Of a stretch of DNA of 64,000 nt, positions 15,274 to 54,180 are shown one piece after another. Within the stretch, counting starts at the first letter, position 1. Each line of letters begins with the position of its first letter. The stretch is taken from contig CM000436.1 in assembly GCA_000165345.1 (NCBI GenBank), positions 1,184,001 through 1,248,000 of the forward strand, written 5' to 3'. The translations under genes were made by a program, and so were the position numbers. The notes beneath the pieces are model-generated. The model saw nothing but the letters and a program-made list of their open reading frames with translations, was not told where the DNA came from and did no database searches.

Positions 15274-15326
15274 GGCGCCTGCATGTTTGCATGCATATAT
15301 AAGTTCAATTTGAGCGCCACATGCAT
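15274..15326. promoter_or_regulatory. GGGCGCC + TTTGCATGCAT + GAGCGCCACATGCAT composite element
   Basis: Located in the 14618-16120 intergenic region. It combines the E2F-like GGCGCC with GCATGC and CATGTG. Confidence 0.5.
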
Positions 15327-15690
15327 TTTGGAAAATTATGTTTGTGAAAACTATAAATAGAAGATGATTTTGTTTCTATTAAGTCTTTTTTTGTAATTTT
15401 TAGAAATATTTGTACATCTTCAAAATGCTTATTCTTTGACAATTTTTTTGTTCATAATGGAATTAACGAATATAGAAAAGTTAAATTTTTTATTTTTTTT
15501 TACTGATTTAATATTTAAAAATTGACATTTAGAAATCTATTTCTAACTAATTTAGTAATTTTCCAAAAATATAAATACTACTCTTTATTAAAATATATCA
15601 AAATAATTATCATTTTTTATATTTAAACCCAAGTTTAATCAAATTTATTAATTTTTCTTTTTTTTCTAGTTTTATACTTTATATTTAAAT

Positions 15691-15729
15691 ACGTGGTTTT
15701 ACCGCCGCCCCACGTAAGGTACCGGTATT
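15691..15729. promoter_or_regulatory. ACGTGG-N13-CCACGT inverted repeat enclosing ACCGCCGCCC, followed by GGTACCGGTATT; ~400 bp upstream of FCP1
   Basis: A perfect 6-bp inverted repeat flanks a GC-only core. Confidence 0.45.
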
Positions 15730-16119
15730 ATTAATTAAATATAATAAAAAATATACTTTAATAATATAAGTATGAAAGAAATTTATATATTTAAATTTAT
15801 AATAATGTTAAACATAAATATTTTGTGAGAGAAATAAAGAAATAGAGAAGAATAAGAAGGGGTGAGGAAAAAAAGTAAATAAAAAAAAGAATTACAAGAT
15901 CTTAAGAAAGTAATATGTAATAAATAAGATAATTGTAAAAATATAGGTTAAAATTTTGCTAGTAGAATTAAGTAATTTGATTAAATTTTATTCAAGTATT
16001 TATAAATTAATATACAAGACAAGATTTAGATCATTCTTTTAAATAATAAAGATTAAATTAAACTAATTATTATTATTCCTAATATTAATATAGGTATATA
16101 ATCAATATAATAACTTGAT

Positions 16120-18408
16120 ATGAGTGAGGATGAGAAAATACAAATTAAATGTTTAACTGAAATATTTAAGAATCCAGTTAAAATAGAATGGAAAAAGTAT
16201 TTAAATGATAAAATAAAACCTGGAGAAGTTATTTTAGATATTTCAGATTTGAATAATGGTCAATTAGTTACAAGAATTAAATCAATATGTCATGGAAAAA
16301 TATCAAGTTGTTTAACTCCAAAAATATGTGAAATCATTTCAGTAATAAAACAAAATAATAATGAACATATTTCAGAATTTGAAATTAAAGATTTAACGAA
16401 TGAAAGTTTTGAGAAATCAATTTTATATATTAAACAAGAAAATCCAAATAGTCATAATAATAGATATTATTTTGGTTATTATTTATGTGATCATACTACA
16501 TTTTTAAGTAATATATGTGTAGAATGCGGATTTATACTCGAAGGAAAAAGTGAATTTTCTAATAATAATAAATCAATTAAAAGAGTTAAAGCTGGAAATA
16601 ACAATAATGAGATAGCAGAAATTGAATCTACTAATATAAGTAGACGTGATCATAAAACAGGTAACTATCATGAAAATGATAGAAATGAAAGAATGTTAAT
16701 AAATGCAGGTTTTCTTTCAAATAATAATGATATTAAATTTAATAAGAATTATGTAGATGAACAAGAAAAATCTTTTATATTTGAACTATTATATATAAAG
16801 AGAAAGTTAAGCTTAGTTTTAGATTTGGATAATACATTAATACATGCATCTTCAACTTTACCAGAAATTAAAAAAAATGATGAATTTATTGAAATTAAAG
16901 AAATTATGGAAAATGAAATTACTGAAGAAATTTATAATAAGTATTATGGTAGTGTTGTAATGCTTGGAAATAAACCACAAAGTAATGAATTACTTCCAAA
17001 AGGAATTGATCATTTTCCTCATTATAATAATGATACAGATTCAAATATTGAAATTTATTTTAAATTATTAGAAAGTTTGATATTTTGTATTCCATTTGGC
17101 AATTCTTTAAATTCTGGAATAGAAAGACAATCTAGAAATAGCTCAAATTGGAGTTTTGGATATTATAAATTAAGACCTGGTGTAATTAATATGTTGAGAA
17201 CTCTTTCTAAAGATAAATATGAAATCTATATGTATACTATGGGAACAGAATATCATGCATATACTTCACTTCGAATTTTGGATCCAGAATTACGTTTTTT
17301 CCATTCAAAGAGAATATTTTATAGAAATAATGGATTTAAAGAGACTTCAATTAAAAGTTTAAATACTTTATTTCCATATGATCATCGTACTTTAGTCATT
17401 TTGGATGATATTGAACAAGCTTGGACTGATATTAATTCATTATTAAAAGTTTATCCATATAATTTTTTTCCAAGTAATTCAATTCCAAATGATTCATCTA
17501 GTTTTTCTAGATATATTTCACAAATTAGAACAAACAATAAATGGAGTCAATTAATAAAAAAGAAAAGAACTAGAAATGATCAAATATCTGAGAATGATTG
17601 TAAAGAAAAGGATGAAATAGATCAAAATAAAATTGATAAAGAAATAACAAAGGAACAATCTTGTATTGATATTATCAAAGAAATCATTAGATCAGAAAAA
17701 GATTATCAGTTATTGATATTCCAAAAGTTATTAATAGCTTTACACGATGCATATTTTAAAGAATTTGATTTAACTTTAAGTAAAAAAGGAGAATTTCATG
17801 ATGAAGATTCATTGGTTTATATAATTTATAGAGATGCACCAAATATTTCCAATATTATTAAGATTATGAGAAGAGGAGTACTTAAAGATTGTAATTTACA
17901 ATTTACTGGTTTCAATAATAAATTCTTTTATAACTTTGTAGATTCAGATTTATATAAATGGTGTAGATATTTTGGTTCAAGTATATTGGATAATAATACA
18001 AAGAATTACTCAGAGAAATTAATTGCTACTCACTGTATATGTGAACAATTATTTACAGAAAAGTATCATCATGCAAAAGAAAAAGGAATTCCATGTATTA
18101 ATATTTTATGGCTTGAAACTATTATTTATACATGGATTAGCCCTTTAAAGATTAATATAAATAATCCATTATTTTGTGATCCTGTTAATTCAGATTATTA
18201 TTCCCCTTTTGAAAGTTTAAATTTGAAAGATAAAGAATCTCCAGACTACTTTGACTTTGATAATTACAGTTATTCCTATCTTTATTCTACAAATACAAGC
18301 GAATCACTTAAGGAACAACTTTGGGAAGAAGCTTTTAACGATATCTCATTTTCTATGGGAGAAGAAGATGATGATGGCGAAGAAGAAGAAGATGATGATG
18401 ATGATTAA
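16120..18408 (+). CDS. FCP1: RNA polymerase II CTD phosphatase FCP1 (FCP1-homology/NIF phosphatase domain + BRCT domain, acidic tail)
   Basis: LSLVLDLDNTLIHAS is the DxDxT catalytic motif of the FCP1/SCP family. The C-terminal LQFTGFNNKFFYNFVDSDLYKWCRYFGSSI...IATHCICEQ is BRCT-like. The tail is EEDDDGEEEEDDDDD. Confidence 0.85.
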   Translation: MSEDEKIQIKCLTEIFKNPVKIEWKKYLNDKIKPGEVILDISDLNNGQLVTRIKSICHGKISSCLTPKICEIISVIKQNNNEHISEFEIKDLTNESFEKSILYIKQENPNSHNNRYYFGYYLCDHTTFLSNICVECGFILEGKSEFSNNNKSIKRVKAGNNNNEIAEIESTNISRRDHKTGNYHENDRNERMLINAGFLSNNNDIKFNKNYVDEQEKSFIFELLYIKRKLSLVLDLDNTLIHASSTLPEIKKNDEFIEIKEIMENEITEEIYNKYYGSVVMLGNKPQSNELLPKGIDHFPHYNNDTDSNIEIYFKLLESLIFCIPFGNSLNSGIERQSRNSSNWSFGYYKLRPGVINMLRTLSKDKYEIYMYTMGTEYHAYTSLRILDPELRFFHSKRIFYRNNGFKETSIKSLNTLFPYDHRTLVILDDIEQAWTDINSLLKVYPYNFFPSNSIPNDSSSFSRYISQIRTNNKWSQLIKKKRTRNDQISENDCKEKDEIDQNKIDKEITKEQSCIDIIKEIIRSEKDYQLLIFQKLLIALHDAYFKEFDLTLSKKGEFHDEDSLVYIIYRDAPNISNIIKIMRRGVLKDCNLQFTGFNNKFFYNFVDSDLYKWCRYFGSSILDNNTKNYSEKLIATHCICEQLFTEKYHHAKEKGIPCINILWLETIIYTWISPLKININNPLFCDPVNSDYYSPFESLNLKDKESPDYFDFDNYSYSYLYSTNTSESLKEQLWEEAFNDISFSMGEEDDDGEEEEDDDDD

Positions 18409-18844
18409 GATGAAGATGGAGATGATGATGATAAATACAATGATTACGATAATGATGATAATGACGAAAATCTATATATTTCAGATTCTAATTACTCAAA
18501 GAATTCTTAATTTGAAAAAATTTCAGAATTAGAATTCACTTTGACATCAGAATATTAGATAATTACTGATGACTCTCATTTATTGTCATTTCTTAGAATG
18601 GCGGGCTCAATTTTTGTTTCTTTTCCTCAATTTAATACACTGAAAATATGAAATAGCATCTAGTTCTTCATATAAAATTTCAATTAAAGTCTATAATACA
18701 ATATTGTTATTTATGAATGATTTACTAGACTAGATAAAAATTCTTGATTTATGATTTAATACTAAGGGATAATTAAGAAATATTATGTGTAAATAAGAAT
18801 GACTTTACATTTAGAAATAAAATAGCAATTTTATTTTTGCTTTC

Positions 18845-18864
18845 GCATGCGGAAAATGGCGCCA
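18845..18864. promoter_or_regulatory. GCATGCGGAAAATGGCGCCA, ~90 bp upstream of the zinc-ribbon gene ATG
   Basis: The TGGCGCCA palindrome plus GCATGC. Confidence 0.5.
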
Positions 18865-18951
18865 TTAAATAAATATTTCTATAGTAATTAATAATAATAA
18901 TAATAATAAAATTGGAATAAGAAAGACTGGAATAAATATAAATGGTTATAA

Positions 18952-19555
18952 ATGTCAGGAAATAGTAAGCAGTTATCCAAGTCAGAATTGGTTAAGATAT
19001 TGAAAAAGTCTACAAGCAGTACTAGGGAGAAGAATTTGGCAATAAAGCAATTAAAGAAGTTTCCACCAAATCAAAAAGATGAACTGGATAAGAATTTGGA
19101 AGGTTTAAAATTTAAAGTTAACAAGAATAAGTTATTTCATTTTTTGTAAGTTTTGAATGATGAGAATTTGGATTATGAAATTTTGTTGAATTATTTTAAA
19201 GAATTCAACAAAAATCATTCCAAAAAAAAATATTAAATATAAATTAATGTTAAAATTTAATATCTAAAAACAAAACAAAAAAAAAGATGTTTTAGATGCG
19301 ATAAGCCTAAACAGTCTAATATTCAAGTATTGTGTAAGCTTAAAGGTAAGTAATTTAATTTATTAAAAGAAAAAAATTAATTAAATTATTAAACATGAAA
19401 ATAATTAAAATTCAATGAATAACATTAATATTAATAATAATGATAAAATGATATTATACATTATAGATTCAGAATATACAATATGTCACTGTTGCTATCT
19501 TTCATTAGAAAGTAGTATTGAATTGAAAAGAATTAAAAGTTTGAATTTAAGATAA
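18952..19555 (+). CDS. small (~113 aa) spliced zinc-ribbon protein, 3 exons: 18952-19145, 19287-19345, 19467-19555
   Basis: Donors GTAAGT at 19146 and 19346. Acceptors aaaaaaaaag|A at 19286 and cattatag|A at 19466. The frame is kept across all three exons and unites CFRCDKPKQSNIQVLCKLK (exon 2) with DSEYTICHCCY (exon 3) into a C-x2-C...CHCC metal-binding module. TGGCGCCA and GCATGC sit ~90 bp upstream. Confidence 0.55.
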
Positions 19556-19556
19556 T

Positions 19557-20312
19557 TTAATTATTATTGCAATCAAGATCTTCATCATCATCATCATCGT
19601 CATCAATATCTTGGCCTAAATCTATATCACTATCTTGATTCATTTTTTCAGTTTCTGAATCATTCATTCTATTAACATTATTTATATCTTGACTCCAATT
19701 TGGAGTAATTGACATTTCATATTCTGTTGGTAACCAAATTTTTGAAACGCCTTTATTTGGAAACGTAGGTAAAGGTAAAGAGTTAATTTCACTAGATACC
19801 ATTTTATTTGCTATATTTGAATTTTGACTGGCTGTAATTGTTTCATAGTATTCTGAAATAGCAATTTTAGCATCACATTCTTGAATATTTGTTCTTGAAT
19901 CTATTCTTGCATATTCATTAGATTTAATGATCAAATCTTGGCTAAATGCTAATTTTTTTTTCAGATGAACATAATAATTATGTAAATTATGATATTTTAT
20001 AGTGATTGAAAAATAAAACTTACCGAATGCAGTATTTAATAATTGATCAATAATTCTTGGATCATAAGATTCTACTTTCATATCTTTTAGTAGTCTTCCA
20101 ATAGAAGCTACAGATTCTGGAATTACTTGAATATATTTTTTCTATTGTAATTATTGATTAATATTTAAAATAATAAATAGAAATAATTAAATATTTATTA
20201 CAAAACAAGAATATATTAAAACAATATATTAATAGATATAAAGAAGAAATAATTATATATTGATTCAAACTTTGCATATATTAATATGAAAATACTTAAC
20301 TTACTTCTTCCA
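19557..20312 (-). CDS. hypothetical protein with acidic C-terminus, 2 exons on minus strand: 20304-20312 (ATG GAA GAA) and 19557-20141
   Basis: The ORF stays open upstream of the track Met to the acceptor ttacaatag| at 20142. Donor GTAAGT at 20303-20298 follows a 9-nt first exon ATGGAAGAA. A TTTTGGCGGTAA motif lies ~140 bp upstream at 20445-20457. The C-terminus is DIDDDDDDDEDLD. Confidence 0.55.
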
Positions 20313-20704
20313 TATATTTGAAAAAAAAATAATTGTTTTCTTTTTTTCCTTACTTTTCTTTTGTCAATTTGTGAAATTCTCGTGTTTTTTCATTTATTAT
20401 AATTAATAAAAAATAATATTTATTTTGGGTATATTACCGCCAAAACTTTTATATTCATAAAAATTTATTATTAATAACTAAATATATGATAATTTTTTTA
20501 AATTAGCAATAGAATATAATAAATGTGAAATATTTAAAAATAAAACATAAAATTTTTACTTATAATTATAACATAAAACTAATAATACTTTAAAAAAACA
20601 AATAAATAGATAAAATACATTCTCACATATATTGAATTGATTTTATTATCGTTATCAGTAAATAAATATTGATTTGGCAAAAAAATTTTCTATGTGGACA
20701 AATA

Positions 20705-20755
20705 AATGCATGCAGTGCATGTGGCGCATAAAGGTGCAGATAATGCATGCATTTA
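20705..20755. promoter_or_regulatory. ATGCATGCAGTGCATGTGGCGCATAAAGGTGCAGATAATGCATGCAT in the divergent promoter between the minus gene (ATG 20312) and the Kazal-mucin gene (ATG 21101)
   Basis: Two ATGCATGCA copies flank CATGTGGCGC. Confidence 0.5.
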
Positions 20756-21100
20756 TTTTGTTTTTTTTTTTTAATATTGAAATTCTGAGTTGAGGGGTGA
20801 TGTGTGAAGGAATATTTTATATTATATATTGTGGGAGATGACAAATTTATAATATAATATGTGCTCGTATTCGTGTATAAAATAAAGTATAAAAAAGAAG
20901 ACATACCGTTTATAATTAATAGTTTGTCTCAATAAGAAATACTTATATAATAAATAAAGTGTATTAAAATGCATCATAAGATTATTAATTATTAATTTAA
21001 GATAAAATTAAATTAAAAGGGAAACAAATTTGAGATATATAACTCAAATAGTAATAATTACATCAAACGCATCAATAAATATAAATATAATAGTGGAGAA

Positions 21101-22528
21101 ATGTTTATTAAAAGGAATATATTGAGTTTAGCAACATTATTAGTTGGAGCTTCAGCAAGTGGTATATTTAGACAATTTGGTGATAAAATAACCCAACAAG
21201 CAAATCCATGTCATATTACATGTCCAAGAGAATATGCTCCAGTATGTGCAACAGATGCAGAAACTTATGAGAATTTATGTTTATTTGGAGTAGCAAAATG
21301 TATGAATAGAGATCTTCAATTGGTAGCAAATGTAACATGTCCAGATTTATTAATACATTTAACACATTTAGCACAGAAAGGTATGGTAGAAAGTATGAAT
21401 GCAATAGATTCAACATATCAAACATTTGGTAATATAACAAAGGGAACAGCAGAAATGATATCATCTACTTTAGATTCTGTACCATTAATAAAATTACCAA
21501 ACTTTAATCTTCCAATATTTGGAATACCACCAATTCCACCACAAGTTTTGAAAACGACTTCAACTTCAACTTCAACTTCAACTACTACTACTACTACTAC
21601 ATCAACATCAACTTCAACAACTGAAAATACAAGTACAAATTTTGAATCAGATTCTTCATCTGAATCAACATCAGAATACACATCCACATCCACATCCACG
21701 TCATCGACTATTACATCAGATATTGAGCCTACATCTACATCTACATCCACATCTGCATCTACATCTACATCTACATCTACATCTGCTTCTACATCTGCTT
21801 TGCCAACATCTACAACTACCATTGCTACTTCAACAAAATCTTCAAGAAAATTAATAGAGATTCCAAGTTTAGAACAAGGAGCAAGTGGAGTAATAGCACA
21901 GGTAACTAAGACTATACAATCAGCACTAAGTGGATCTGGAGTTAGTGGTTCATCACCAACAACATCATCATCAGCAGCATTGGGATTAAATAATTTGGAT
22001 GATGCAAGAACAACAATTGAGGGTATGGTAAAGACTATTCCATATACGCCAGGAAAGAATTCTAGTAATATATTATTAGTAGATGGAGTTTCACAAATAG
22101 TAAAATTACCAAATGGAAAAGAAAGTAAGAATTTACTTTCAAATATTACATCAACAGAATCATTTAATTTACCCAATATTACAAATTTAACAAATGGTTC
22201 ATTAAGTAATATTACAGAAAAAATTACAAGTAGAAATATTACATTAAATGGTGAAAATTTAATATCTAATCCAAATTTTCAATCTTTGAGAAATTTAACT
22301 TCATCAACATTGGATAATAATAATATTAGTAATACGACTGCTATTAATGGCACAAATAGTGGTTTAAATATTAATGGTACTTCTTTATTAACAGATTCTA
22401 AATTTAATAAATTGGTTAATGGTAGATTTAATACAACTGATATTTTTAAAGGAATTGGAAATACAATAAATAATATTACAAAGAATATTAAGGAGCAAGT
22501 AGAAAATGAAATTGAAAATATTAATTAA
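21101..22528 (+). CDS. secreted mucin-like glycoprotein with N-terminal Kazal-type protease-inhibitor domain
   Basis: Signal peptide MFIKRNILSLATLLVGASA. CHITCPREYAPVCATDAETYENLCLFGVAKC is a Kazal motif. A long (Thr/Ser)n tract, encoded by ACT/TCA/ACA repeats, spans 21560-21840. The tail carries many N-x-S/T sites. Confidence 0.8.
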   Translation: MFIKRNILSLATLLVGASASGIFRQFGDKITQQANPCHITCPREYAPVCATDAETYENLCLFGVAKCMNRDLQLVANVTCPDLLIHLTHLAQKGMVESMNAIDSTYQTFGNITKGTAEMISSTLDSVPLIKLPNFNLPIFGIPPIPPQVLKTTSTSTSTSTTTTTTTSTSTSTTENTSTNFESDSSSESTSEYTSTSTSTSSTITSDIEPTSTSTSTSASTSTSTSTSASTSALPTSTTTIATSTKSSRKLIEIPSLEQGASGVIAQVTKTIQSALSGSGVSGSSPTTSSSAALGLNNLDDARTTIEGMVKTIPYTPGKNSSNILLVDGVSQIVKLPNGKESKNLLSNITSTESFNLPNITNLTNGSLSNITEKITSRNITLNGENLISNPNFQSLRNLTSSTLDNNNISNTTAINGTNSGLNINGTSLLTDSKFNKLVNGRFNTTDIFKGIGNTINNITKNIKEQVENEIENIN

Positions 22529-22640
22529 ATCTTTAATATTAAGATTTAGTTAATATTTTTTTTCCTCTCTTTTTCTTCTTCTTCATGAATCATAATTATC
22601 ATCCAAACCAAATATTCAGAGTAGAAATAGCCCATAGATT

Positions 22641-23054: not shown

Positions 23055-23828
23055 TCACTATTACTGCTATTAATACTAGTATTAATATTATTATTAGTAT
23101 TATTATTACCACTACTACAATGGCATTACAATATTGCTACATTTAAGTTTATATGAATGTTGTAATAATCAATTGGTTCTAAATCAAAATGGTGAAAAAC
23201 TAATGTATAAACAGACAGACAAATAAAGCAGACAGATGAATAAACAGAGAAATGAATAAGCAAAAAGATGAATAAATCTACAAAAATAAGAAAGAAAGGA
23301 AAAAAAAAAAGAAAAGGAAGAAATAGACTAAAGAATACTGAGAAAAGTTCTTTATTGATAAGGAATGGGAGGGAAAGAGAAAAAAAAAGTTAAGTTTTCC
23401 AATATGTTGAAATAATCTTTTTCTCTTATTAACTAAGTAATAAGATTTAAATAAAAAAAAATATATTATAATGAACTCGTATAATTGTTTAATCTAAATA
23501 AATTAATTAAATCTTTTATTGATATATCCCAACTTAAAAGAAATATATAAACTTTCTTAAATATACATCAAATAATATTTGGATATTAACAATAATTGAC
23601 TAGAAGAAAAGCAATTGGTGATTATTTTCTTTTTTCTTTTCCACATCTTTATTTATTATTTATCTTTAATATTAATGAGTATAATGGGGAAAAAAAAGAG
23701 AAATTTACACAAAATATTAAACAAATACAGGAATAGATAAGTTATGATTTCTTAATATTTGAATTATAAAATAAGAATAAATCAATTAATTAAAAACAAT
23801 AATATAACATTATTAACAAACGTTGTAA

Positions 23829-23838
23829 NNNNTNTNTT
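23829..23838. other. run of ambiguous bases (nnnntnt); single N also at 14774, 23951, 24437 and 24812
   Basis: A low-quality or gap region in an extremely AT-rich spacer. Confidence 0.9.
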
Positions 23839-24245
23839 AATGTTTTTCTATCATATTTATTTATTTTCCTTTTAGAAAATTTATTAATATAAAAAAATAA
23901 TAATAATAATAATAATAATATTAAAAGTTATTAGAAAATAAGTCAAATTTANTTTTGTAAATTTAATTGTATTATTTGTAATATAATTATAACAAAAAAG
24001 TGTTTTTTTTTTTAAATAAATATATTAATAGCATGTACTATTAATTATTACTAATTTATAAAGATTACAATGAGTAATTGTCAAAAATAAAGCATAAAAA
24101 TTAATAAAAATAATAAGCTTTTGTTTATATATATTATTTAAGTTAATTGATACTAAATGAAACTAAAATTTATTTAGAAAAAAAAAGAAGAAAATTCAAT
24201 TTATAAATTATATTCAAATAGTAGATAATAATTAATATTATATTA

Positions 24246-38696: not shown

Positions 38697-38747
38697 ACAT
38701 GTGGCGCCATCCAACGTAGTAAAGGATCCTGACTTTTGGCGCCATAG
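38697..38747. promoter_or_regulatory. ACATGTGGCGCCAT ... TTTTGGCGCCAT pair, ~190 bp upstream of UTP23
   Basis: Two GGCGCCAT boxes 26 nt apart, the first fused to CATGTG. Confidence 0.55.
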
Positions 38748-43070: not shown

Positions 43071-43332
43071 AGCTCCTTAATAAGAAAATTCTTGAAAAAA
43101 ATGTTATACCCAATTGGTCTCAACCAATAGATTTAATGAAACCAAATTTGAAAAAGATTATTACCTACGTAAATATTAATTAAACCCAAAATAAACCCTG
43201 TATAAGAATACATAACCCGCCTAAACATGTGGGGGGAATAATTAAAAATGACTAAAAAAAAAAGGGAAATTAAAAGAGAGAAAAAAAGAGCAAAAATTTC
43301 ATATAAAATAATTCATAGAACTTGCGATTGAA

Positions 43333-44083: not shown

Positions 44084-44230
44084 TTCTTCACACAAATAAA
44101 TATATGAATAACAATTGATTAAGTTGAGATTTTTTGTTCTATTATCATTAAAAACTTAATTAAAAAAATTTCAATATTTTTCTTTAGTTAAAAATATGAA
44201 TTTTCTTGAATAAATTAATGACGCAATTAA

Positions 44231-44242
44231 CCCGCGCGCGGG
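44231..44242. promoter_or_regulatory. CCCGCGCGCGGG 12-bp GC-only palindrome in the divergent AP-sigma/PAN2 promoter
   Basis: It is flanked by GGTACAAGCCCCCTCACGGAG, between the minus ATG (~44083) and the plus ATG (44615). Confidence 0.5.
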
Positions 44243-47600: not shown

Positions 47601-50425
47601 TTCCAAAGCTTTCATATGACATCCTTCTTGCTCATGTACCAGGCTGTACCTCAGAATTTTGTCTTGCTTGTGAGCTTGTTCATCTAACATTTATGTTGTA
47701 CAGTTGCAAGTTTAATTTAAAGAATGGAAAAGGACGAAATCCCGACTTATTTCCATGCGTAATACTCAATTCAATCTATACATTAAACATGTTAAGAACT
47801 GTTAGGCATATACCAGAAATAAAACAGCTTGGGATAGATTCCGAGGATAGTCAACAAAGTCTAGTAGGGGCTCCTGGAATTGGAGGAGGATCTGTGAATA
47901 GTAATGGCTCTTTGGGAGGTACTGGGGTTGGGGAATTAAAATTTGGAGGAGTTGGATCAGGAGTTGGATCAGGAAGTCCAACTGGTGGATTCGATGATAT
48001 TAACTTTAATGGAATGTCTTTATTGAGTCACTTACCTCAAGCAGCTTTCAACCAGATTCGGAAGACCGAGATCTTTTGGAAGTTCTTCTTGGAGAATTTG
48101 AAAGTTGATATGATGAATAAAACAAATTTTAATCCAAATACTGAAAGGATAATCGATGAGCAAGAAACAAGTACTCCTGGCCAGTTTGGAGGTACAAATG
48201 AGAATTGTATTTTTGAAAAGTTGATAGATTCTCTTTTCAATATTGAGGTTACAACAATCAGTAGTTGTGTACAAGCTAAACACGCATTTAAATCAACGCA
48301 GATTGTCACGTATTTAGATATACCAGCAAATCATTTATTAGCACAGAATTCTATGCCGATAGGCCAGAAGTTGGATACATCTTCCAAAATGGGTCAGAAG
48401 GATGACCTAATTCTATCCCAGAAGCTGAAATCTGAGAAATTTTTGAAGGCCTTGAATTCTAACTTACTGAGGATCATTGCCGGAAGAAGCTTCTGTAAGG
48501 AATGTGGAACTTCAACTGCTTGTCAGCATGTTAGATGTATCACAAAGCTCCCTCAGCTTCTTGTTCTTTCTTGCAATATCCAGTCACTAAAACACTGGAA
48601 TGAATATGGAGGTATGTCTCCTGAAGAACATGAAGAATTTGTCAAAAAGAGCCAGGGAATAAGTGGAAGTGGCTCTGGAACCAACCACGAACAACTTCCA
48701 AATACAGAATATTCAATACCTTTCGATATTCGATTCTCAAAGTTAAGAAAAGGGTTCAGTTCTCAGAATGGACGTGCCACTGGAGAGACATCAGGCGGAA
48801 TAGATATTATCCAGGTTGATAAGACTACTGTATTTACAGAGGGTAGTATTGGACATAATGGTGAACGAGATAAAGAATCCAAGTTAGACAACGAAAATCC
48901 CAATATGGGAGGAAACTACCAAGAATATGAGTTAGTTGCATTGATATTTGGAGTTTATCAAGGTTGTTCAATTCAGCTTCCATCCGGTACCCATTTTTGT
49001 ATGTATGTTAAGCATAAGTTATTATTTAACGAAATGAATAATACACAAGATAAATGGTACATGATCAATGGATCTTCAATTCTTCCAGTGAATAACAAGA
49101 ACGAGATTATTAATTTTACATCTTGTTGGAAACTTCCTACTTTCTTATTCTATTCAGACAAGAAAGGGAATTTATTGAATTACTTATTCAATAAATATCC
49201 ATGTTTAGAATTTCAACTTGATTTGGCCCAAAGTGACTTGGATCTTTTAGTAAGAAAGGTTTCTGGTACTGATAATGATGATGAAGAATGCATTGATCAA
49301 GAAAATGAGAAAGATTCTCTTAGTAAAGACAAAGTAATACCTGATCAAAGCCCTGATAATAATTCAGAAACTAACACCAATCTTGAATCAAGTCATTTAA
49401 CCCAGAATATTTCTGAAATGGATATTTTAGATATTCATGGTATTAAATTTAAGATACCTTGGAAGTATCCAAAAATAATACATGAGCACGTAATACAACA
49501 ATTGGAATCAATAATAAAGCTAATTAAGAACGAAAAGAATCTTTCAGAAAATCCGGATCCAAGTCAGATCAATGATCAGTCTCCATTCACAACTAGAGAA
49601 CTTTCAAATCTTTGCTTAAATTACTTTGTAAGATATCCATTTTCTAAAGGACTTTTGAAGAAACCAAAAGAAATTAATGAAAGATTTATAAATACTCCTA
49701 GTCATTCAGAATTTATTCAAAATTCTCCAATGATTGTTGCACTGGATTCAGAGTATGTTGCTTTAGATGTTGAACAATCTGTTGTAAGATCTGATGGAAC
49801 AAAAGAAATCTTGAAAAAATCTCAATTGTCTTTAGCAAGAGTTTCAATTGTACGTTGTGGAAAGATATCATTAACGGGAGCTAATGATAATGTTGAAATT
49901 GATAACAAAAAAGGACTGATAATGGACCATTATGTATCTTACGGATCAAATAGTCAGCAACCTAGAGATTATTTGACAAAATATTCAGGAGTGAGACCTG
50001 GAGATTTGGATCCTAAAACTTCATCTCACTTTCTTACCAGTAAATCCTGTATACTTAAGAAACTTCAGTTCTTGGTAGATGCTGGTGTAGTATTTATTGG
50101 ACACGCACTCCCAAGTGACTTTAAAATAATTAATATTTATGTTCCTCCATTTCAAATTATTGATACTGTTGAGATTTACAGACTCCCTGATGAAAGATAT
50201 ATCAGTCTTAAATTTTTGGCTAAATTTGTACTCAACAAGAATATCCAAACTGAGGTCCATGATTCTATCGTTGATGCTAAAACTGCACTCGAGCTTTTCT
50301 TAAAGCACCTTTCTTTAAAGAAGAGCGGATCTTGGAATGATTTCCTTAGTTTCCTTTATTCAAAGGGTCATTCTGTTGATTGGAAGATTGAAGCTATTGA
50401 AAACTCAAATTTTGAGCATAATTAA
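44615..50425 (+). CDS. PAN2: PAN2, catalytic subunit of the PAN2-PAN3 poly(A) deadenylase (pseudo-UCH domain + DEDDh exonuclease), with large low-complexity insertions
   Basis: The C-terminus IVALDSEYVAL...SLARVSIV...DHYV...DYLTKYSGVRPGDLDP...GHALPSDFKIINIYVP...IDTVEIY...SLKFLAKFVL...HDSIVDAKTALELF matches the PAN2 DEDDh exonuclease. CKECGTSTACQHVRCITKLPQLLVLSCN is the inactive UCH-like fold. ATG at 44615. Confidence 0.85.
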   Translation: MQNRLLYSEGDYEDSFLSGVVGLDTGSNGSGNSSRRANQGGAAGGTESGGIGLYDSRISNKGGAYYSSEINHGLTSMSGGRSSVGYYDHFGGVGSGHLDSGLGALGADLRVGQAPWGWETYTSYNMIGLFSSHTNNKKIRPFISSIYCDPFYELLWLGWTNGFLSSFRFPHCSRYTAFPVGIADSASGGGLVRDNVIYMGFPSSSHLYTVTNSGIGVYSRGGAPISSHSYNTLTNEKQQSSKILCCDSNRYQSYMMSSHPIIGIGTGKGVSILDLQQVRPIHSIPYSGSISCIKSSASSSSFIVGGVNMLGIADTRLPRLGHTIQIHPTNSGQNETLVSGLAVNEYTVAIITSTISNRKISSDELLSSVGGVCGLPVLDLIRIHPGEVSTSPEMMVYKKNLDLTNMMRDSVVRLYDTRKFRPRKNISFSPGPINIAWSDNSLAISAGTATTPDFEDLYVIGNNGQWQIYHSNIDQMEFYATPSVPLSNLNFSSSSNYLILADTSGSIHTMQRPHTNGGITSSSSIQPNTSSNTNISTSNTKLEQQQITGSGISGGGVGGGMGSSSAYNHQNHQHSFSVFHSYPLPNLNIPGASIGGGYNRQMNTSLYNYSYVKSIQTLMGIASNPVTKPITHNVGHPTIPNLTVALRYLQGRPVVAYDSLNSVGIPPILEKLHNGKLNIKEDNLLSFNNKFDIDQIRKIQTEFGWNTYKSSDELPHGLTIVKARTIPRQTDSSLGLNISTSNLPGPQNSAIRSPPNVGDMQGLVHAMGGINKQSGIQSNTREHNEGGEARHGHSSGALAFSVEYIREVRPEMDHYKLKALDFRMVDFIKAAINPDTTKYRNNNLVYGIPLLCLRGSMPIWYYRKKKNMSLYAFGGTQGSSGEHSHTKSLSLVPVKFHYKPRLNPNRREKMKNRRMMGGGTSIENSTAGTSGQGVAHTAGALGNMSTSSSLPNGGDAQTVSRAEDDQSSIGEGLVSIEFDNDTLDFTQPFFMLLSFIPKLSYDILLAHVPGCTSEFCLACELVHLTFMLYSCKFNLKNGKGRNPDLFPCVILNSIYTLNMLRTVRHIPEIKQLGIDSEDSQQSLVGAPGIGGGSVNSNGSLGGTGVGELKFGGVGSGVGSGSPTGGFDDINFNGMSLLSHLPQAAFNQIRKTEIFWKFFLENLKVDMMNKTNFNPNTERIIDEQETSTPGQFGGTNENCIFEKLIDSLFNIEVTTISSCVQAKHAFKSTQIVTYLDIPANHLLAQNSMPIGQKLDTSSKMGQKDDLILSQKLKSEKFLKALNSNLLRIIAGRSFCKECGTSTACQHVRCITKLPQLLVLSCNIQSLKHWNEYGGMSPEEHEEFVKKSQGISGSGSGTNHEQLPNTEYSIPFDIRFSKLRKGFSSQNGRATGETSGGIDIIQVDKTTVFTEGSIGHNGERDKESKLDNENPNMGGNYQEYELVALIFGVYQGCSIQLPSGTHFCMYVKHKLLFNEMNNTQDKWYMINGSSILPVNNKNEIINFTSCWKLPTFLFYSDKKGNLLNYLFNKYPCLEFQLDLAQSDLDLLVRKVSGTDNDDEECIDQENEKDSLSKDKVIPDQSPDNNSETNTNLESSHLTQNISEMDILDIHGIKFKIPWKYPKIIHEHVIQQLESIIKLIKNEKNLSENPDPSQINDQSPFTTRELSNLCLNYFVRYPFSKGLLKKPKEINERFINTPSHSEFIQNSPMIVALDSEYVALDVEQSVVRSDGTKEILKKSQLSLARVSIVRCGKISLTGANDNVEIDNKKGLIMDHYVSYGSNSQQPRDYLTKYSGVRPGDLDPKTSSHFLTSKSCILKKLQFLVDAGVVFIGHALPSDFKIINIYVPPFQIIDTVEIYRLPDERYISLKFLAKFVLNKNIQTEVHDSIVDAKTALELFLKHLSLKKSGSWNDFLSFLYSKGHSVDWKIEAIENSNFEHN

Positions 50426-50805
50426 AACAAAGCATGTTATCGTCATTTAAAAATCCAATTCAGCCTGAGATTGGATTAAGTAGAATAAAGACACAATACA
50501 GGTTATGCTACGTTTTGTTTTAATAGGCTCAACAATTTAACTTATTTTTATTACGATTCTTTACTCTAAATCATTAATTTTTGACTGGAAAATTGTCTCA
50601 AGCATAATTTAGTAGTCGTCATATTGGCTTTATTGATTTTAATAATTATGACCAATTTACTTTCAAATCTTATTAATTTAGTCTTTATATCTTATATTAA
50701 TTAAATATAAACCTATTTAAATTATTGATTTCTTTCTTTTTTTATTTCTTCCTTTTTTCTTTCTTTAAGTTATTGTTAAAAATAACACCTATACCGTCCT
50801 TTGTA

Positions 50806-50847
50806 ACCACATGCATCGCAAAGTGGCGCCAATATGCGCGCGGAAAT
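50806..50847. promoter_or_regulatory. CCACATGCATCGCAAAGTGGCGCCAATATGCGCGCGGAAA, ~150 bp upstream of the WD40 gene
   Basis: GGCGCCAAT plus GCGCGCGGAAA (E2F-like) plus CATGCAT. Confidence 0.5.
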
Positions 50848-50995
50848 TTGTTAGTCATTTTGGACTTGGAGGAGGGGAGGAAAAAAAGTGATTATTGCAA
50901 GATTAAAAAGAATGTATAATTTGATCAATAAAAAGCAAGATAAAAGGAATTGAGATTAAGTAAAAGTAATAGAGCTGGCTTAAGGTGAGAAACAA

Positions 50996-51934
50996 ATGAA
51001 AAGTAAGGGAAAAGGATTAATAAGTGAAGAAAATGAAGAGGTTCCAGTAATATTATTAAGAAAACTAACAAAAAATGAGACAATTTTAAGCTTAGAATTT
51101 ATCAAGGATGATAGTCATTTAATATCTGGAAATATTTCCGGAGTTTTGGATATTTGGGATTTAGAGATCATGAGATGTTCTTCAAGTATAAATATGAAAT
51201 TTGATTCACCTATTATTAAAACTATTTATGATGAAAAAAAGGAAATTATATATGTACAAAATAGAAAAGGTGAGATTTATTTAGTAGATAATACTGAAAA
51301 TTTTAAAAAATTGGATTTAAATGGTATTTACTATTCACTTGCAAAAATGATCATTCTTCCTACTAGAGAAAGTATAATTTTTCCAAGAGAAAATGATCTT
51401 TTATTAAAAAATATTAACAATTCGAAACATGATGATATTCAATTCAATTATCCAACTGAAAAAAGTGACAAACTTATTGAAGTTGAATCTCTTAATGATC
51501 ATTCTGTATTATTAGGTTTTGAATCAGGAAATGTTGTCATTTGGGATTTAAGAAAACCTGATTCTCATGTATATATGAACAATGTAACACAAAATTCTCC
51601 AATATTATCTATGAAAAGATCTTTTAATCGTATTTGGATATCTACCTTTGATTCAAAACTTCGTGTTTTTAATAGAAATTGTTTTGATCATCCAATTAAA
51701 GAAATTGACTCTTTAAATGTTGTTGATAAAATTTCTATACGTTCAGATTCTCTTATTACAGTTACATCCAATACACTTAATACAAACATGGATATTTTTG
51801 AAAATAAATCTTTAAATTATATTAAAACATTCAAATTTCATTCCACAGAAGTTAGTTCTATACAATTCTCAAACTCTTCAAATTTATTTGCTGCTTCATC
51901 AAATACTATTTCAATATGGGATTTACTATCGTAG
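50996..51934 (+). CDS. WD40-repeat protein (312 aa), specific family not recognised
   Basis: ATG at 50996. Repeated blocks SGNISGVLDIWDL, GFESGNVVIWDLRK and SSNTISIWDL are WD repeats. Confidence 0.7.
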   Translation: MKSKGKGLISEENEEVPVILLRKLTKNETILSLEFIKDDSHLISGNISGVLDIWDLEIMRCSSSINMKFDSPIIKTIYDEKKEIIYVQNRKGEIYLVDNTENFKKLDLNGIYYSLAKMIILPTRESIIFPRENDLLLKNINNSKHDDIQFNYPTEKSDKLIEVESLNDHSVLLGFESGNVVIWDLRKPDSHVYMNNVTQNSPILSMKRSFNRIWISTFDSKLRVFNRNCFDHPIKEIDSLNVVDKISIRSDSLITVTSNTLNTNMDIFENKSLNYIKTFKFHSTEVSSIQFSNSSNLFAASSNTISIWDLLS

Positions 51935-52311
51935 TTACTAACCTCAATACTATAACTATAACTATTACTACCAAATTAAAACCAATATTTATATTAACAT
52001 CACTATTAATATTACCGTCACTATTTCTATTCCTGTCTATATTTCTACTACCGTCGATATTTCCATTAATATTCACCATCTAATTTAATTCTCAAAACTA
52101 CCCAAAACCCCTTAATCCGTTAAAATCTCTAAAACACACATTCTAAAGCTCTTATAACCTAAGCCTTATTTTGATTCATTTAAAATAAATTAAAAGAAAA
52201 AGAAATCAAATATTCACAAATAACAACGGAAATTTTTAAAAAAAAATTATTTAAATAAAAAACAAGCTTCCTCTCACTTTTCTTGCTACTATTAATTGTA
52301 ATTAATATTCA

Positions 52312-54180
52312 TTAAAAATTTGCCACGTCATTTGTACCGCCATTCCCCACATGTGGCGCCTCTTCCGTTGTATTGGAAATTAAATTAAATATAGAGTTTT
52401 TATTATGTCTATAATTAAAATCATCATAATCAAAATTTGATAAAAGTTCAAGTTGTTTAATTATTTGATTAATTTGTAAACTTGATGGTCTGGAATATGA
52501 GTTAATATCTGAATTATAATTTGAAGCTACTTTTGAATTTTTTGGTTTATGTACGAGGCAAGGAAATAAATCAATTGTATGAGATTCATTCATCTTCTCT
52601 TCAATTATATCCAAATTGTTTAAATCTTCTGAATTCTTTAATTCTTTTAATTCATCTTTTATGTTATAATAATCTAAAAGAAGTTCTTGATCTTGACTTG
52701 GAAGTTGTTCTTCTGATAGAAAAACTAAAATCATCCAGTCAAATTCTGCTTGAATCTCTTTTAATCTTCTTTTAAAATTATTAGATTTTTGATTTATTAA
52801 ATTATCCTCATTATTATATTTACTATTATTATTTCCATTCTTACTTTCAAATTCCTTCTTTGCTAAATTTAAAAATTTTGTCCATCCTTGTTTACTTTCA
52901 CAAAATATTATCCCAAAAGTATCATTTAATGATGATTTATTTCTAAATGTATTTAATAAACTTACTGAATCTTTATTTATTACAAGATTTTTTGGATTTG
53001 AACCAATTATTTGAATATTTGTAAAACTATCTATTTTTAACTTTGTATTTTGTAAATTATTATAATTATTTACAAGTCTTGAAAATAATCCCTTCTTTAA
53101 ATTTGGTAAACATTTATCATTTATTAAATTTGAATCAATTGAATCCAAATTCATTACTATTGGATTCTCAAACAAATTTTTTGGCATACTTAATAACTTT
53201 TTTAAATATGTATATGAATTATTTATTAATATTTTATAATTTGTTATTGATATATTCATTGCAGGTAAATCCCTTAATTCAATACTATTCTTATTCAATA
53301 TTGGCTTAAAAAATAAATAAATTAATAATTCTTGCCAAAAAAATTCCCATTCTGATTCATTATTTAAACATTTATTATTATTAATATTTATATTTATTTC
53401 ATTATTATTCGATAATTTTGTTTCAAATATACCTTTCATCTCATTCCAATGATCTAAAAATCCATATTTTAAAATATCATCACCATATTCATCATAAACT
53501 TCTTTTTTATTTGGATTACTTAAAAATTCATAAGATTCTTGAACTTGTCTAAATTTTATTAAACTCTTTTCTTTTTGTTCATCATTCTCTGATCTTTGTT
53601 TATCAGGATGTAATTTAGAAGCTTTTTTTCTATATGCTTTCTTAATATTTTCTATACTACTTCCAGGTTGAAGTTCTAATATATCATAATATTTATGAGA
53701 AATTAAAACTCTTCTATTTAATATTTTTAATTCATCATTTTCTAAATAATTATCTTTTATTTTATTTCTTTTCTTATATTTATCTTGATTATCATCTTCA
53801 TCATTTTCTTCTTCATCAGATATTATTAATTCCCTTCTTTTTAATACACTATTTTGACTTCTTAATGTTTTAACATAATCTGATTTTGTCTTTGAATCAT
53901 TACTAACAATGCTTGGTGAATAACTTATTTTACTTAAAATATCATCTTGTTTACTTTTATTATTTATACTATTATTACTATTACTACTACTAGTACTTGT
54001 AATACTAGCTAAACTTTTATTATTTAATTCTTCTGTAATATCATTATTTTTGTAAAATCTACTAATTCCTATTTCAAATTCTTTAAATTTTTTACTTTCT
54101 TTATTTAATATATTCTCAAAATTATTCTTTTCAACATTTCTAGATTTTTGATAATCTTTTAGTCTCTTTGTAAACATCAT
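52312..54180 (-). CDS. J-domain (DnaJ/Hsp40 co-chaperone family) protein, 622 aa, Ser/Asn-rich N-terminus
   Basis: DYYDILELQPGSSIENIKKAYRKKASKLHPDKQ...FRQVQESYEFLSNPNKKEVYDEYG is a canonical J domain with HPD. ATG at 54180-54178. Confidence 0.8.
   Translation of the reverse strand: MMFTKRLKDYQKSRNVEKNNFENILNKESKKFKEFEIGISRFYKNNDITEELNNKSLASITSTSSSNSNNSINNKSKQDDILSKISYSPSIVSNDSKTKSDYVKTLRSQNSVLKRRELIISDEEENDEDDNQDKYKKRNKIKDNYLENDELKILNRRVLISHKYYDILELQPGSSIENIKKAYRKKASKLHPDKQRSENDEQKEKSLIKFRQVQESYEFLSNPNKKEVYDEYGDDILKYGFLDHWNEMKGIFETKLSNNNEINININNNKCLNNESEWEFFWQELLIYLFFKPILNKNSIELRDLPAMNISITNYKILINNSYTYLKKLLSMPKNLFENPIVMNLDSIDSNLINDKCLPNLKKGLFSRLVNNYNNLQNTKLKIDSFTNIQIIGSNPKNLVINKDSVSLLNTFRNKSSLNDTFGIIFCESKQGWTKFLNLAKKEFESKNGNNNSKYNNEDNLINQKSNNFKRRLKEIQAEFDWMILVFLSEEQLPSQDQELLLDYYNIKDELKELKNSEDLNNLDIIEEKMNESHTIDLFPCLVHKPKNSKVASNYNSDINSYSRPSSLQINQIIKQLELLSNFDYDDFNYRHNKNSIFNLISNTTEEAPHVGNGGTNDVANF

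Follow-up and report, generated by a model that had tools for sequence, protein, structure and literature searches.

A 10-mer present four times in a chromosome 8 window of Cryptosporidium parvum: a possible flank-specific form of the E2F/DP motif

Four copies of the 10-mer and the modules around them

The window (the whole stretch of 64,000 nucleotides that was analyzed) belongs to chromosome 8 of Cryptosporidium parvum Iowa II (cgd8_47xx-49xx), as assigned from exact protein matches, and had a GC content of 27.5%, in keeping with the ~27% given in a preliminary description. Four exact matches to CATGTGGCGC were present, compared to 0.01 expected from dinucleotide-preserving shuffles, and no one-mismatch variants of the word were detected in the window. 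The four 10-mers are thus real and non-random, as first claimed, and the coordinates originally assigned to them consisted of the true sites plus a few flanking bases. The hexamer GGCGCC occurred nine times (0.24 expected), and GCGC was nearly always intergenic and located within GGCGC(C). The window contains 15 oriented TGGCGC half-sites, and CATG directly preceded four of them (binomial P = 1.9e-8, given the intergenic CATG frequency of 0.0019); because this value is conditioned on TGGCGC, the excess of CATGTGGCGC is not explained by the known enrichment of GGCGC. GTGGCGC was found five times, four of them within CATGTGGCGC, and TGTGGCGC ranked second among the enriched 8-mers of the window, behind TGGCGCCA. 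Three of the four copies are intergenic and the fourth is situated at a convergent 3' junction. The copies, their partner motifs, and three related elements are as follows.

15314-15323, minus strand: copy 1 of CATGTGGCGC, with the minus-strand reading aaaaTGCATGTGGCGCt
15274..15295: partner motifs of copy 1, GGCGCC (15274-15279), TGCATG, and TGCATGCA (15288-15295)
20718-20727, plus strand: copy 2, cagTGCATGTGGCGCa, in the spacer separating a TAF9-like gene (minus) from a divergently oriented Kazal-domain gene (plus)
20692..20758, plus strand: module of copy 2, with ATGTGGAC(AA) at 20692-20701
20700-20714 and 20744-20758: inverted repeat on either side of copy 2, AAATAAATGCATGCA and TGCATGCATTTATTT
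38698..38708, plus strand: copy 3, atttaCATGTGGCGCCa (10-mer at 38698-38707), upstream of UTP23 (cgd8_4870)
38734..38744, plus strand: a further E2F site, of canonical type, TTTTGGCGCCA, located ~30 nt 3' of copy 3
52350..52360, plus strand: copy 4, CATGTGGCGCC (10-mer at 52350-52359), within the final 15 codons of a DnaJ ORF (52312-54180, minus)
52337..52351, minus strand: rest of the copy 4 module, CCGCC (52337-52341) and CCCCACA (52345-52351)
585-592, minus strand: related element GCATGTGG, with GGCGCC (616-621) and TGCATGCA (628-635)
43216..43236, plus strand: related element, CCCGCC (E2F-like, GGCGGG on the minus strand), a 3-nt gap, and ACATGTGGGGGG (G-box-like ATGTGGGG)
50807-50815, minus strand: related element TGCATGTGG, 8 nt from GTGGCGCC (50823-50830), upstream of a WD40 gene

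Copy 1 lies ~700 nt past a RING-FHA gene and ~800 nt ahead of the FCP1 ATG, and site 1 is a distal module adjoining conserved non-coding DNA. Sites 2 and 3 occupy ordinary promoter positions, those of the Kazal/TAF9-like gene pair and of UTP23: copy 2 is 374 nt ahead of the Kazal ATG, and the C. meleagridis counterpart of copy 3 is 228 nt before the annotated UTP23 start. Sites 1 and 2 read TGCATGT-GGCGC, and each has a full copy of TGCATGCA at 12-25 nt from the 10-mer, while sites 3 and 4 read ACATGT-GGCGCC. The CAT of site 3 also belongs to TTTACAT (published unknown motif 9, YTTACAT), and the CA of site 4 terminates a G-box that is read from the opposite strand.

The broader word RCATGTGG was present eight times in the window (0.94 expected). 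All of these copies had an E2F-like site within ~31 nt, a zone that accounts for just 2.8% of the window. At the three loci where RCATGTGG is not fused to the core, the distances are 8, 18, and 31 nt. Similarly, GCATG was within 30 nt of 6 of the 13 GGCGC loci, versus 0.8 expected. One of the related elements contains the similar word CATGTGGGGGG at 43226, which the preliminary description had correctly reported, and the element at 585..635 is within the coding sequence of a gene for a 1965-aa protein with a CPSF_A domain.

Conservation of the core and of its CATG flank

We compared orthologous loci from five other Cryptosporidium species, which provided 14 site comparisons. The GGCG core (word positions 6-9) matched in 14/14 comparisons and position 5 in 13/14; for the CATG flank, the CA matched in 11-12/14 and the middle TG in 8/14. 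With a mean background identity of 0.63 (0.82, 0.66, 0.51, and 0.44 by species), the flank as a whole had 39/56 matches, versus ~35 expected. These alignments indicate that the E2F core is under purifying constraint and that changes in the CATG flank accumulate at roughly the neutral rate. The 9-mer CATGTGGCG was kept in all three species compared only at site 2, where two of the three also retain the full 10-mer. The fused 10-mer is not constrained as a unit, save at site 2, where it is part of a larger conserved block. The putative TGCAT-type element was kept at site 2 and at 50807, partly at site 3, and was lost at sites 1 and 4.

At individual sites, the orthologs of copy 1 read AATGTGGCGC in C. 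meleagridis, CAGGTGGCGC in chipmunk genotype I, and CTAATGGCGC in C. ubiquitum, and GCATGCAT in the same module was kept in all five species aligned. Conservation of the block around copy 2 extended to four species; TGCATGTGGCG is conserved there in C. meleagridis, chipmunk genotype I (ending GGCGA), and C. ubiquitum, and 26 nt upstream of the copy is ATGTGGACAA, a reverse-complemented form of the previously described lncRNA-upstream motif 5, TTGTCCACATK. Copy 3 corresponds to CATGTGGCGCC in both C. meleagridis and Logan species L007, CATATGGCGCC in the chipmunk genotype, and CATG-GGCGCC in C. ubiquitum; the TTTTGGCGCCA site beyond it is at equal spacing in all five species. Among the related elements, TGCATGTGG(CG) was conserved in four species both at 20717 and at 50807, CCACATGCA at the latter was kept in C. 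meleagridis, chipmunk genotype I, and C. ubiquitum, and the RCATGTGG of the 43216 element was retained in C. meleagridis and chipmunk genotype I.

Copy 4 is located at a convergent 3'-3' junction, 416 nt past the stop of the WD40 gene, with no ATG downstream; its orthologs read CAGTTGGCGCC, TATATGGCGCC, CACATGGCGCC, and CACGTGGCGCC. On the minus strand its module reads GGCGCCA-CAT-GTGGGG-AAT-GGCGGTA, corresponding to E2F, G-box, and E2F-like motifs. The GGCGCCA..GGGG..GGCGG scaffold was kept in five species, with the rare codons GCG, GGG, and GGC; GTGGGG was found in four species and the chipmunk genotype has TATAGGGGA. In C. ryanae the peptide tail of DnaJ is absent, yet an E2F-like TGGCGCGC is present within a 28-nt spacer. 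Coding constraint was rejected as the reason for copy 4 because synonymous positions in five species retain rare GC-rich codons and because the C. ryanae site persists without the peptide. The module is probably an antisense promoter; C. parvum lncRNAs start mostly at the 3' ends of sense genes, and E2F-driven antisense lncRNAs have been reported to start at this type of junction. In the available portions of the Li 2021 supplements, searches by gene id and by sequence revealed no lncRNA annotated next to site 1 or at the 3' end of DnaJ.

Relation to published Cryptosporidium motifs

The GGCGC(C) core is the E2F/DP motif of C. parvum, 5'-TGGCGCCA-3' (PMC3734150; PMC12246861), which is the commonest promoter motif of this organism and the dominant motif of its open chromatin. 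Motifs over-represented upstream of genes include E2F (TGGCGCCA; DTTGSCGCCH), AP2_1-like (BGCATGCAH, ACATGY), and G-box-like (DTGTGGGG) sequences, and E2F and ApiAP2_1 (ANTTGCATGYA) are the top two motifs within the 100 nt upstream of lncRNAs (PMC7840661). Consistent with the E2F/DP motif ([A/T][C/G]GCGC[G/C][A/T], usually TGGCGCC(A)), TGGCGC is found in all four copies and TGGCGCC in copies 3 and 4, the setting is intergenic and often that of a bidirectional promoter, AP2_1 and G-box motifs cluster nearby, and the core does not vary between species. The copies differ from it in that CATG-T replaces the T-rich flank (TTTGGCGCC / GGCGCCAAA) on one side and in that the palindrome is reduced to its half, GGCGC[T/A], at sites 1 and 2. 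The T-rich 5' and A-rich 3' flanks of E2F/DP sites (TTTGGCGCCAAA) were absent at all four copies, where the sequences 3' of the core are TCAAAT, ATAAAG, ATCCAA, and TCTTCC.

The flank resembles the ApiAP2_1 family (TGCATGCA; BGCATGCAH; ACATGY; ANTTGCATGYA), with TGCATGT at sites 1 and 2 and ACATGT at sites 3 and 4; unlike that family's sites, the palindrome is broken, with the 3' half replaced by TGG(CGC). AP2 domains defined by protein-binding microarrays (PBMs) bind the TGCAT core; the other sequence that AP2 domains have been shown to bind is G[T/C]GGGG rather than GTGGCG. The TGCAT core is present in copies 1 and 2, whereas the ACATGT of copies 3 and 4 fits only the looser motif 7, ACATGY. 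An ATGTGG stem is shared with the G-box-like motif and lncRNA motif 5, followed in the 10-mer by CGC rather than GG or ACAA; the GGGG run after TGT that typifies a G-box is absent from the 10-mer, which reads TGTGGCGC, and a true G-box-like CATGTGGGG is confined to 43226 and to the strand opposite copy 4. No description of RCATGTGG as a recurrent word was found in the Cryptosporidium motif literature examined. As in other composite or overlapping sites of compact eukaryotic promoters, two recognizable sites are juxtaposed at zero-base spacing; here, however, the fixed spacing is not conserved between species.

Competing explanations and implications

On balance we lean toward the view that the four 10-mers represent a flank-specific subclass of the known E2F motif, overlapped by an AP2-type CATG element. 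According to this proposal, an AP2_1-like RCATGY element (TGCATGT at sites 1 and 2, ACATGT at sites 3 and 4) would abut the E2F core and share its first T, which would account for the identical 5' extension. The element would be part of the enriched RCATGTGG, E2F-adjacent at 0 to ~30 nt, with the 10-mers as the zero-spacing case. Motif resemblance suggests one of the E2F/DP dimers on the core and a TGCAT-type ApiAP2 protein on CATG; given the overlapping footprints, independent binding at the fused sites would be less likely than competition or tight cooperation. Sites 3 and 4 contain ACATG rather than the PBM-defined TGCAT core, which weakens the AP2 assignment there, and the derivation of one 10-mer from three different neighbors is an uncomfortable coincidence for this explanation. 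A single extended specificity would be equally compatible with the missing one-mismatch variants and with the further copies of ATGTGGCGC elsewhere in the genome. It is also possible, and more tentative, that RCATGTGG is the site of a distinct factor with E2F/DP as its obligate partner at short, variable spacing. A candidate would be the ApiAP2 protein cgd1_3520, for which PBMs showed binding to TGCAT as well as to the G-box; these two motifs could be halves of TGCATGTGGGG. Since the footprints overlap in CATGTGGCGC, occupancy would then be mutually exclusive, providing an AP2/E2F stage switch at the same promoter.

Rather less likely, in our estimation, is that a single factor reads (A/C)ATGTGGCGC as one extended site, a distinct word marking a small regulon; this factor could be an E2F/DP dimer preferring a non-T-rich flank (there are two E2F and two DP genes) or an uncharacterized protein. 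Four exact copies with zero one-mismatch variants agree with this idea, as do the four occurrences of ATGTGGCGC in ~400 kb of published C. parvum lncRNA sequence (~0.5 estimated from composition), a MEME consensus of GGCGCCACATAGGGGCAGG in one Oberstaller 2013 expression cluster, the presence of C. ubiquitum ATGTGGCGCC at two more orthologous E2F sites where C. parvum has ATGGCGC, and the retention of CATGTGGCGCC before UTP23 in the 47%-GC Logan species, with flanks just 46% identical. However, word positions 3-4 evolve neutrally, the full word is lost at three of the four sites in at least one close relative, and the leading C is missing from all four of the independent ATGTGGCGC copies. Furthermore, GCGCCACA occurs in only 2 of the 31 GGCGCC-containing entries of the lncRNA-upstream motif table, close to chance; published consensuses for >100 expression clusters have E2F flanks that are overwhelmingly TT(T)/AA(A); and CATGTGGCGC was not found in 17 kb of C. 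parvum sequence adjacent to the window, where ~1 copy was expected at the window density. A full-text literature search for the sequence strings matched only primers and unrelated organisms. The 10-mer is not a new conserved regulatory word. The original proposal of a specific composite site stands insofar as two elements are juxtaposed, one being the site of the GGCGCC binder (E2F/DP) and the other fitting the AP2_1-like family; as a single constrained site it does not, with the CATG flank near the background rate and the leading C missing elsewhere.

That only the E2F core is functional and the four flanks are a local accident, aided by TG slippage (ATG-GCGC to ATGTG-GCGC) and by the choice of a striking window from a whole-genome scan, seems unlikely. 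The flank is not conserved above background overall, ATGGCGC, ATGTGGCGC, and CATGTGTGGCGC interchange at orthologous sites, and the adjacent 17 kb is devoid of copies, but the P value holds after correction for ~140 windows x 256 flanks, RCATGTGG shows enrichment of its own as well as conservation at two loci (one not fused to GCGC), and retention of CATGTGGCG at site 2 in three other species has a neutral probability of ~1e-5, as estimated from the identities. A bHLH factor bound to an E-box (CANNTG) and cooperating with the GGCGCC binder, as initially suggested, is very improbable. CATGTG does fit CANNTG, orthologs often read CANNTG-GCGC (CATGTG, CAGGTG, CACGTG, CAGTTG, CATATG, CACATG), and the CA is better kept than the variable middle NN. 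TG opens the E2F core TGGCGC, however, so that only the CA is extra information; its excess over background is marginal, CATG is the sole CANN flank at TGGCGC within C. parvum, and copy 4 is upstream of no ATG. Apicomplexan genomes are not known to encode bHLH proteins. The term bHLH is absent (zero text matches) from a 2025 review of transcription factors in Cryptosporidium (PMC12246861). Exact repetition alone speaks for remnants of a dispersed repeat or mobile element, or for part of a structured RNA gene, and we give these almost no credence: copy 4 is within a coding sequence, and a dispersed repeat was rejected because the 40-nt flanks of the four copies are unrelated (7-17/40 identical, typical for unrelated AT-rich DNA). 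No tRNA or Rfam family was detected in the window, permissive Rfam scans around sites 1 and 2 returned sub-threshold matches only, and the positive (penalizing) RNAalifold covariation term for the conserved spacer by site 1 argues against a convincing RNA structure there.

The finding mostly rediscovers two motifs already known, E2F and AP2_1, together with their established co-occurrence, and its practical value is modest because the exact 10-mer lacks conservation as a unit and is apparently rare outside the window. The E2F/DP family distinguishes Cryptosporidium from other Apicomplexa, and functional validation of any property of Cryptosporidium transcription factors is almost entirely lacking. 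The promoters of UTP23, the Kazal/TAF9-like pair, and the WD40 gene would provide a small set for testing competition or cooperation between E2F and ApiAP2 proteins.

Occurrence and genomic setting of the 10-mer

Exact matches to the 10-mer CATGTGGCGC, which joins a CATG flank to the half-site TGGCGC, occur at four sites in the window.

Exact copies of CATGTGGCGC and neighboring genes
Site 1: 15314-15323, minus strand; RING-FHA protein and FCP1 CTD phosphatase
Site 2: 20718-20727, plus strand; TAF9-like gene and Kazal-domain secreted protein, divergent
Site 3: 38698-38707, plus strand; UTP23
Site 4: 52350-52359, plus strand; WD40 protein and DnaJ protein, convergent

The window (27.5% G+C) is dense in long, intron-poor ORFs, and three of their products are identical to GenBank entries from Cryptosporidium parvum Iowa II: UTP23/Fcf1 (cgd8_4870), a V-ATPase proteolipid, and a TAF9-like protein (cgd8_4820). 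These matches place the window on chromosome 8, around cgd8_47xx-49xx. Scans of the whole window for tRNAs and Rfam families gave no matches. Ten scattered N bases are present (14773, 23828-23836, 23951, 24437, and 24811), and one N base lies inside a conserved non-coding block near site 1.

The four copies compare with 0.01 expected, and a search allowing one mismatch found no additional copies in the window. GGCGCC itself is frequent (9 observed versus 0.24 expected); however, CATG precedes 4 of the 15 oriented TGGCGC half-sites (binomial P = 1.9e-8, using a CATG frequency of 0.0019 from intergenic DNA of the window), so the excess of CATGTGGCGC is not a mere by-product of that frequency. 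The claim of the preliminary description that four exact copies are beyond chance was thus borne out. The 10-mer accounts for four of the five GTGGCGC occurrences, and TGGCGCCA and TGTGGCGC rank first and second among over-represented 8-mers of the window.

Three GGCGCC sites were present in 17 kb of C. parvum DNA on either side of the window, but no TGTGGCGC, of which about one was expected at the density of the window. The C. parvum lncRNA sequences that Li et al. 2021 (PMC7840661) deposited, ∼400 kb in total, contained no CATGTGGCGC and five TGTGGCGC. Four of these five are ATGTGGCGC (about 0.5 expected by our own composition estimate), three of the AATG- type and one of the GATG- type. Two of the 31 GGCGCC-containing entries in the lncRNA-upstream motif-instance table of that study carry GCGCCACA. 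In the per-cluster consensus list of Oberstaller, the E2F flank is TT(T)/AA(A) nearly throughout, and the consensus of cluster 157 is GGCGCCACATAGGGGCAGG. Among the Oberstaller clusters, UTP23 falls in cluster 100 and FCP1 in cluster 99. From these counts, ATGTGGCGC seems to be a genuine, though minor, class of E2F-site flank; the leading C of CATGTGGCGC is particular to the window.

Component motifs and their conservation

Nearly all GCGC in the window lies within GGCGC(C), in intergenic DNA. This sequence is the published C. parvum E2F/DP motif (TGGCGCCA; DTTGSCGCCH). Of 200 expression clusters, 114 show an excess of this motif in the DNA preceding their genes (PMC3734150); it is also the dominant motif of sporozoite open chromatin, for which Xiao et al. 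2025 give 984 ATAC-seq peaks, and the top motif upstream of C. parvum lncRNAs (PMC7840661). Copies 1 and 2 read TGCATGT-GGCGC and fit the ApiAP2_1 family (TGCAT core, BGCATGCAH, ANTTGCATGYA); the ANTTGCATGYA instances of Li et al. 2021 (PMC7840661) include GTGCATGTT and TTGCATGTA. Copies 3 and 4 read ACATGT-GGCGCC and fit published motif 7, ACATGY. Of the 13 GGCGC loci in the window, 6 have a GCATG no more than 30 nt away (0.8 expected), and the E2F and ApiAP2_1 motif families are physically linked within it. The broader word RCATGTGG is also enriched (8 observed versus 0.94 expected in the window).

RCATGTGG loci outside the fused copies
43225: ACATGTGGGGGG, 3 nt from CCCGCC
50807, minus strand: TGCATGTGG, 8 nt from GTGGCGCC
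585, minus strand: ∼25 nt from GGCGCC and TGCATGCA

All three non-fused loci are at most 31 nt from an E2F-like site, a proximity that covers 2.8% of the window. Because RCATGTGG is enriched and adjoins E2F-like sites, the four 10-mers are best read as the zero-spacing case of this word beside an E2F site. The ATGTGG stem is seen again in ATGTGGACAA, which lies 26 nt upstream from copy 2 and is the reverse complement of published lncRNA-upstream motif 5, TTGTCCACATK.

The syntenic region was fetched from five other species: C. meleagridis (L008, L009), Cryptosporidium sp. chipmunk genotype I (L003, L005), C. ubiquitum (L001, L006), a Cryptosporidium from a Logan assembly (L007), and C. ryanae (L012). 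For C. felis (L002) and C. canis (L004), retrieval was limited to sites 1 and 2. L007 (Logan SRR31860986 contig 27107; 47% GC) encodes PAN2 and UTP23 that are each 71% identical to those of C. parvum.

Sequences orthologous to CATGTGGCGC of C. parvum
Site 1: C. meleagridis AATGTGGCGC; chipmunk genotype I CAGGTGGCGC; C. ubiquitum CTAATGGCGC
Site 2: C. meleagridis CATGTGGCGC; chipmunk genotype I CATGTGGCGA; C. ubiquitum CATGTGGCGC
Site 3: C. meleagridis CATGTGGCGC; chipmunk genotype I CATATGGCGC; C. ubiquitum CATG-GGCGC; L007 CATGTGGCGC
Site 4: orthologs CAGTTGGCGC, TATATGGCGC, CACATGGCGC, and CACGTGGCGC

Positions 6-9 (GGCG) match in all 14 ortholog comparisons, compared to a mean background identity of 0.63 in the surrounding 200 nt (0.82, 0.66, 0.51, and 0.44 in four species), so the E2F core is strongly constrained. 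Positions 5 (T) and 10 (C) match in 13 of 14 comparisons each, positions 1-2 (CA) in 11-12, and positions 3-4 (TG) in 8; CA marginally exceeds background, and the middle of the CATG flank is neutral. The whole flank (39 of 56 matches versus ∼35 expected) is indistinguishable from drift. The exception is site 2, where TGCATGTGGCG lies within a ∼45-nt block that four species share; conservation in four species also holds for TGCATGTGG at 50807. Two further orthologous E2F sites read ATGGCGC in C. parvum and ATGTGGCGCC in C. ubiquitum, which suggests that a TG indel may interconvert flanks easily. Depending on the species, the flank of the same E2F site reads ATGGCGC, ATGTGGCGC, or CATGTGTGGCGC, a TG dinucleotide having apparently been gained or lost (window 11292, 18857, and 38698 versus L001 5332 and 12664, L003 5236, and L006 4507).

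The site 4 module and other conserved blocks

Copy 4 does not precede a gene: it falls within the final 15 codons of the DnaJ ORF, 416 nt past the stop codon of the convergent WD40 gene. The minus strand reads GGCGCCA-CAT-GTGGGG-AAT-GGCGGTA, with a G-box between an E2F site and a second, E2F-like one, and the CA of the 10-mer is the end of the opposite-strand G-box.

The E2F / G-box / E2F-like module (GGCGCCA-N3-GTGGGG-N3-GGCGGKAAA) and its orthologs
C. parvum: window 52337-52360, minus strand
C. meleagridis: L008 ∼17612-17636
Chipmunk genotype I: L005 ∼17547-17571
C. ubiquitum: L006 ∼17430-17454
L007: ∼17562-17586

The scaffold GGCGCCA..GGGG..GGCGG is common to these orthologs, with variation confined to the spacer triplets, plus TATAGGGGA replacing GTGGGG in chipmunk genotype I. 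Its translation is a conserved DnaJ C-terminal tail, A-P-x-V/R-G-x-G-G-K, using GCG, GGG, and GGC codons, which are uncommon for a genome this rich in AT. The C. ryanae DnaJ protein lacks the tail, but TGGCGCGC is present in the 28-nt spacer between the convergent genes (L012 16828); the constraint therefore acts on the DNA. In C. parvum, antisense lncRNAs typically begin at the sense-gene 3' end, and E2F/DP1 motifs are enriched in the 100 nt before their start (PMC7840661). The site 4 module is probably an antisense-lncRNA promoter.

Other blocks are conserved as well. The ∼550 nt spacer at ∼14700-15260, from the RING-FHA gene to the site 1 module, retains long blocks in 4-5 species (e.g., GTAGGTATTAGCAGTC at 14758 and ATACCGACGGAT at 15155, the latter invariant in five species). 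ORFs of 61 aa or more and Rfam matches are absent from this spacer, and its consensus folding was not convincing; an unannotated lincRNA under control of the site 1 module and an extended 3' UTR are both conceivable. A ∼190-nt block (∼20833-21020; ...TATGCTCGTATTCGTGTATA...AAGAAGACATACCGTTT...TTTGTCTCAATAAGAAATACTTATA...AATGCATCA.AGGAT.ATTAATTATTAATTTAAGATAAAATTAAATTAAAA) upstream of the Kazal-domain ATG (21101) is kept even in GC-rich C. felis and C. canis. Its sole match was a sub-threshold C/D snoRNA (19 bits), and it could be a 5' UTR, leader exon, or non-coding RNA. Between the V-ATPase proteolipid and RING-FHA genes, a double E2F module (11279-11360) is laid out as CCCCACC-N-TGGCGC-N-CCCCTCC followed by AACTGCTCGTGACTT..GGCGCCAAAATCTGAACACACAAAT; its second half hardly varies among six species, 45%-GC ones included (orthologs at L001 5320-5400, L002 6205-6290, L003, L004, and L009). 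A cluster of GCATGTGG, GGCGCC, and TGCATGCA at 585-635, which falls within the coding region of a CPSF_A-domain gene (1965 aa; as annotated in L011), could be an internal or antisense promoter.

The palindrome TACCGGTA, which with ACCGGTAT ranks among the most enriched 8-mers of the window, has four copies, all of them in promoter-side spacers.

Positions of TACCGGTA
15720: before FCP1
35839: before the 1158-aa gene
54401: DnaJ divergent spacer
63982: before the helicase gene

The palindrome is similar to the ATACCGG portion of lncRNA motif 4 in the literature, and at 15684-15727 it accompanies TTTTACCGCC and CACGTAAGG in a block kept in five species. Alternating CG runs, very unusual for 27%-GC DNA, are found upstream of PAN2 (CCCGCGCGCGGG, 44229-44241) and beside the E2F site upstream of the WD40 gene (ATGCGCGCGG, 50834-50843); the latter is retained in C. 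meleagridis and expanded to GGCGCGCGCGCC in L007.

Interpretation of the 10-mer

Beyond the words observed here, with their enrichment, mutual association, genomic positions, and conserved bases, we lean toward the view that the 10-mer is an overlap of known E2F and AP2-type motifs. Motif identity and the literature suggest that the TGGCGC(C) core would be bound by E2F/DP dimers, and the RCATG part by an ApiAP2 protein of the TGCAT type. AP2 domains that bind TGCAT are those of cgd2_3490, cgd1_3520, cgd8_3230, and cgd5_4250. When the motifs are fused the footprints would overlap, and judging from this geometry, binding would therefore be either competitive or tightly cooperative. The preliminary description had suggested a specific composite site, perhaps for a bHLH/AP2-like factor cooperating with a GGCGCC binder. 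This is partly supported: the E2F core and an AP2-type match are indeed juxtaposed, but the drift-like behavior of the CATG flank across species does not favor the 10-mer as one specific, constrained site. A single extended specificity, e.g., one E2F/DP combination favoring ATGT over TTT, is rather unlikely, and we hold it slightly more doubtful that the CATG flank is functionless. The bHLH reading is very improbable, as the TG of the "E-box" belongs to the E2F core and bHLH proteins are absent from the text of a 2025 review of Cryptosporidium transcription factors (PMC12246861). We give practically no credence to an origin from a repeat or RNA gene, since the 40-nt flanks on both sides of the copies are unrelated, as befits a short word rather than a repeat family.

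The component motifs and their co-occurrence are already published; we found no description of the fused 10-mer or of RCATGTGG in the literature accessible for reading. The analysis shows that the 10-mer is a minor variant, labile in evolution, and does not amount to a new regulatory code. More curious are the by-products, namely a promoter-like module that is translated as a DnaJ tail and several deeply conserved non-coding blocks.
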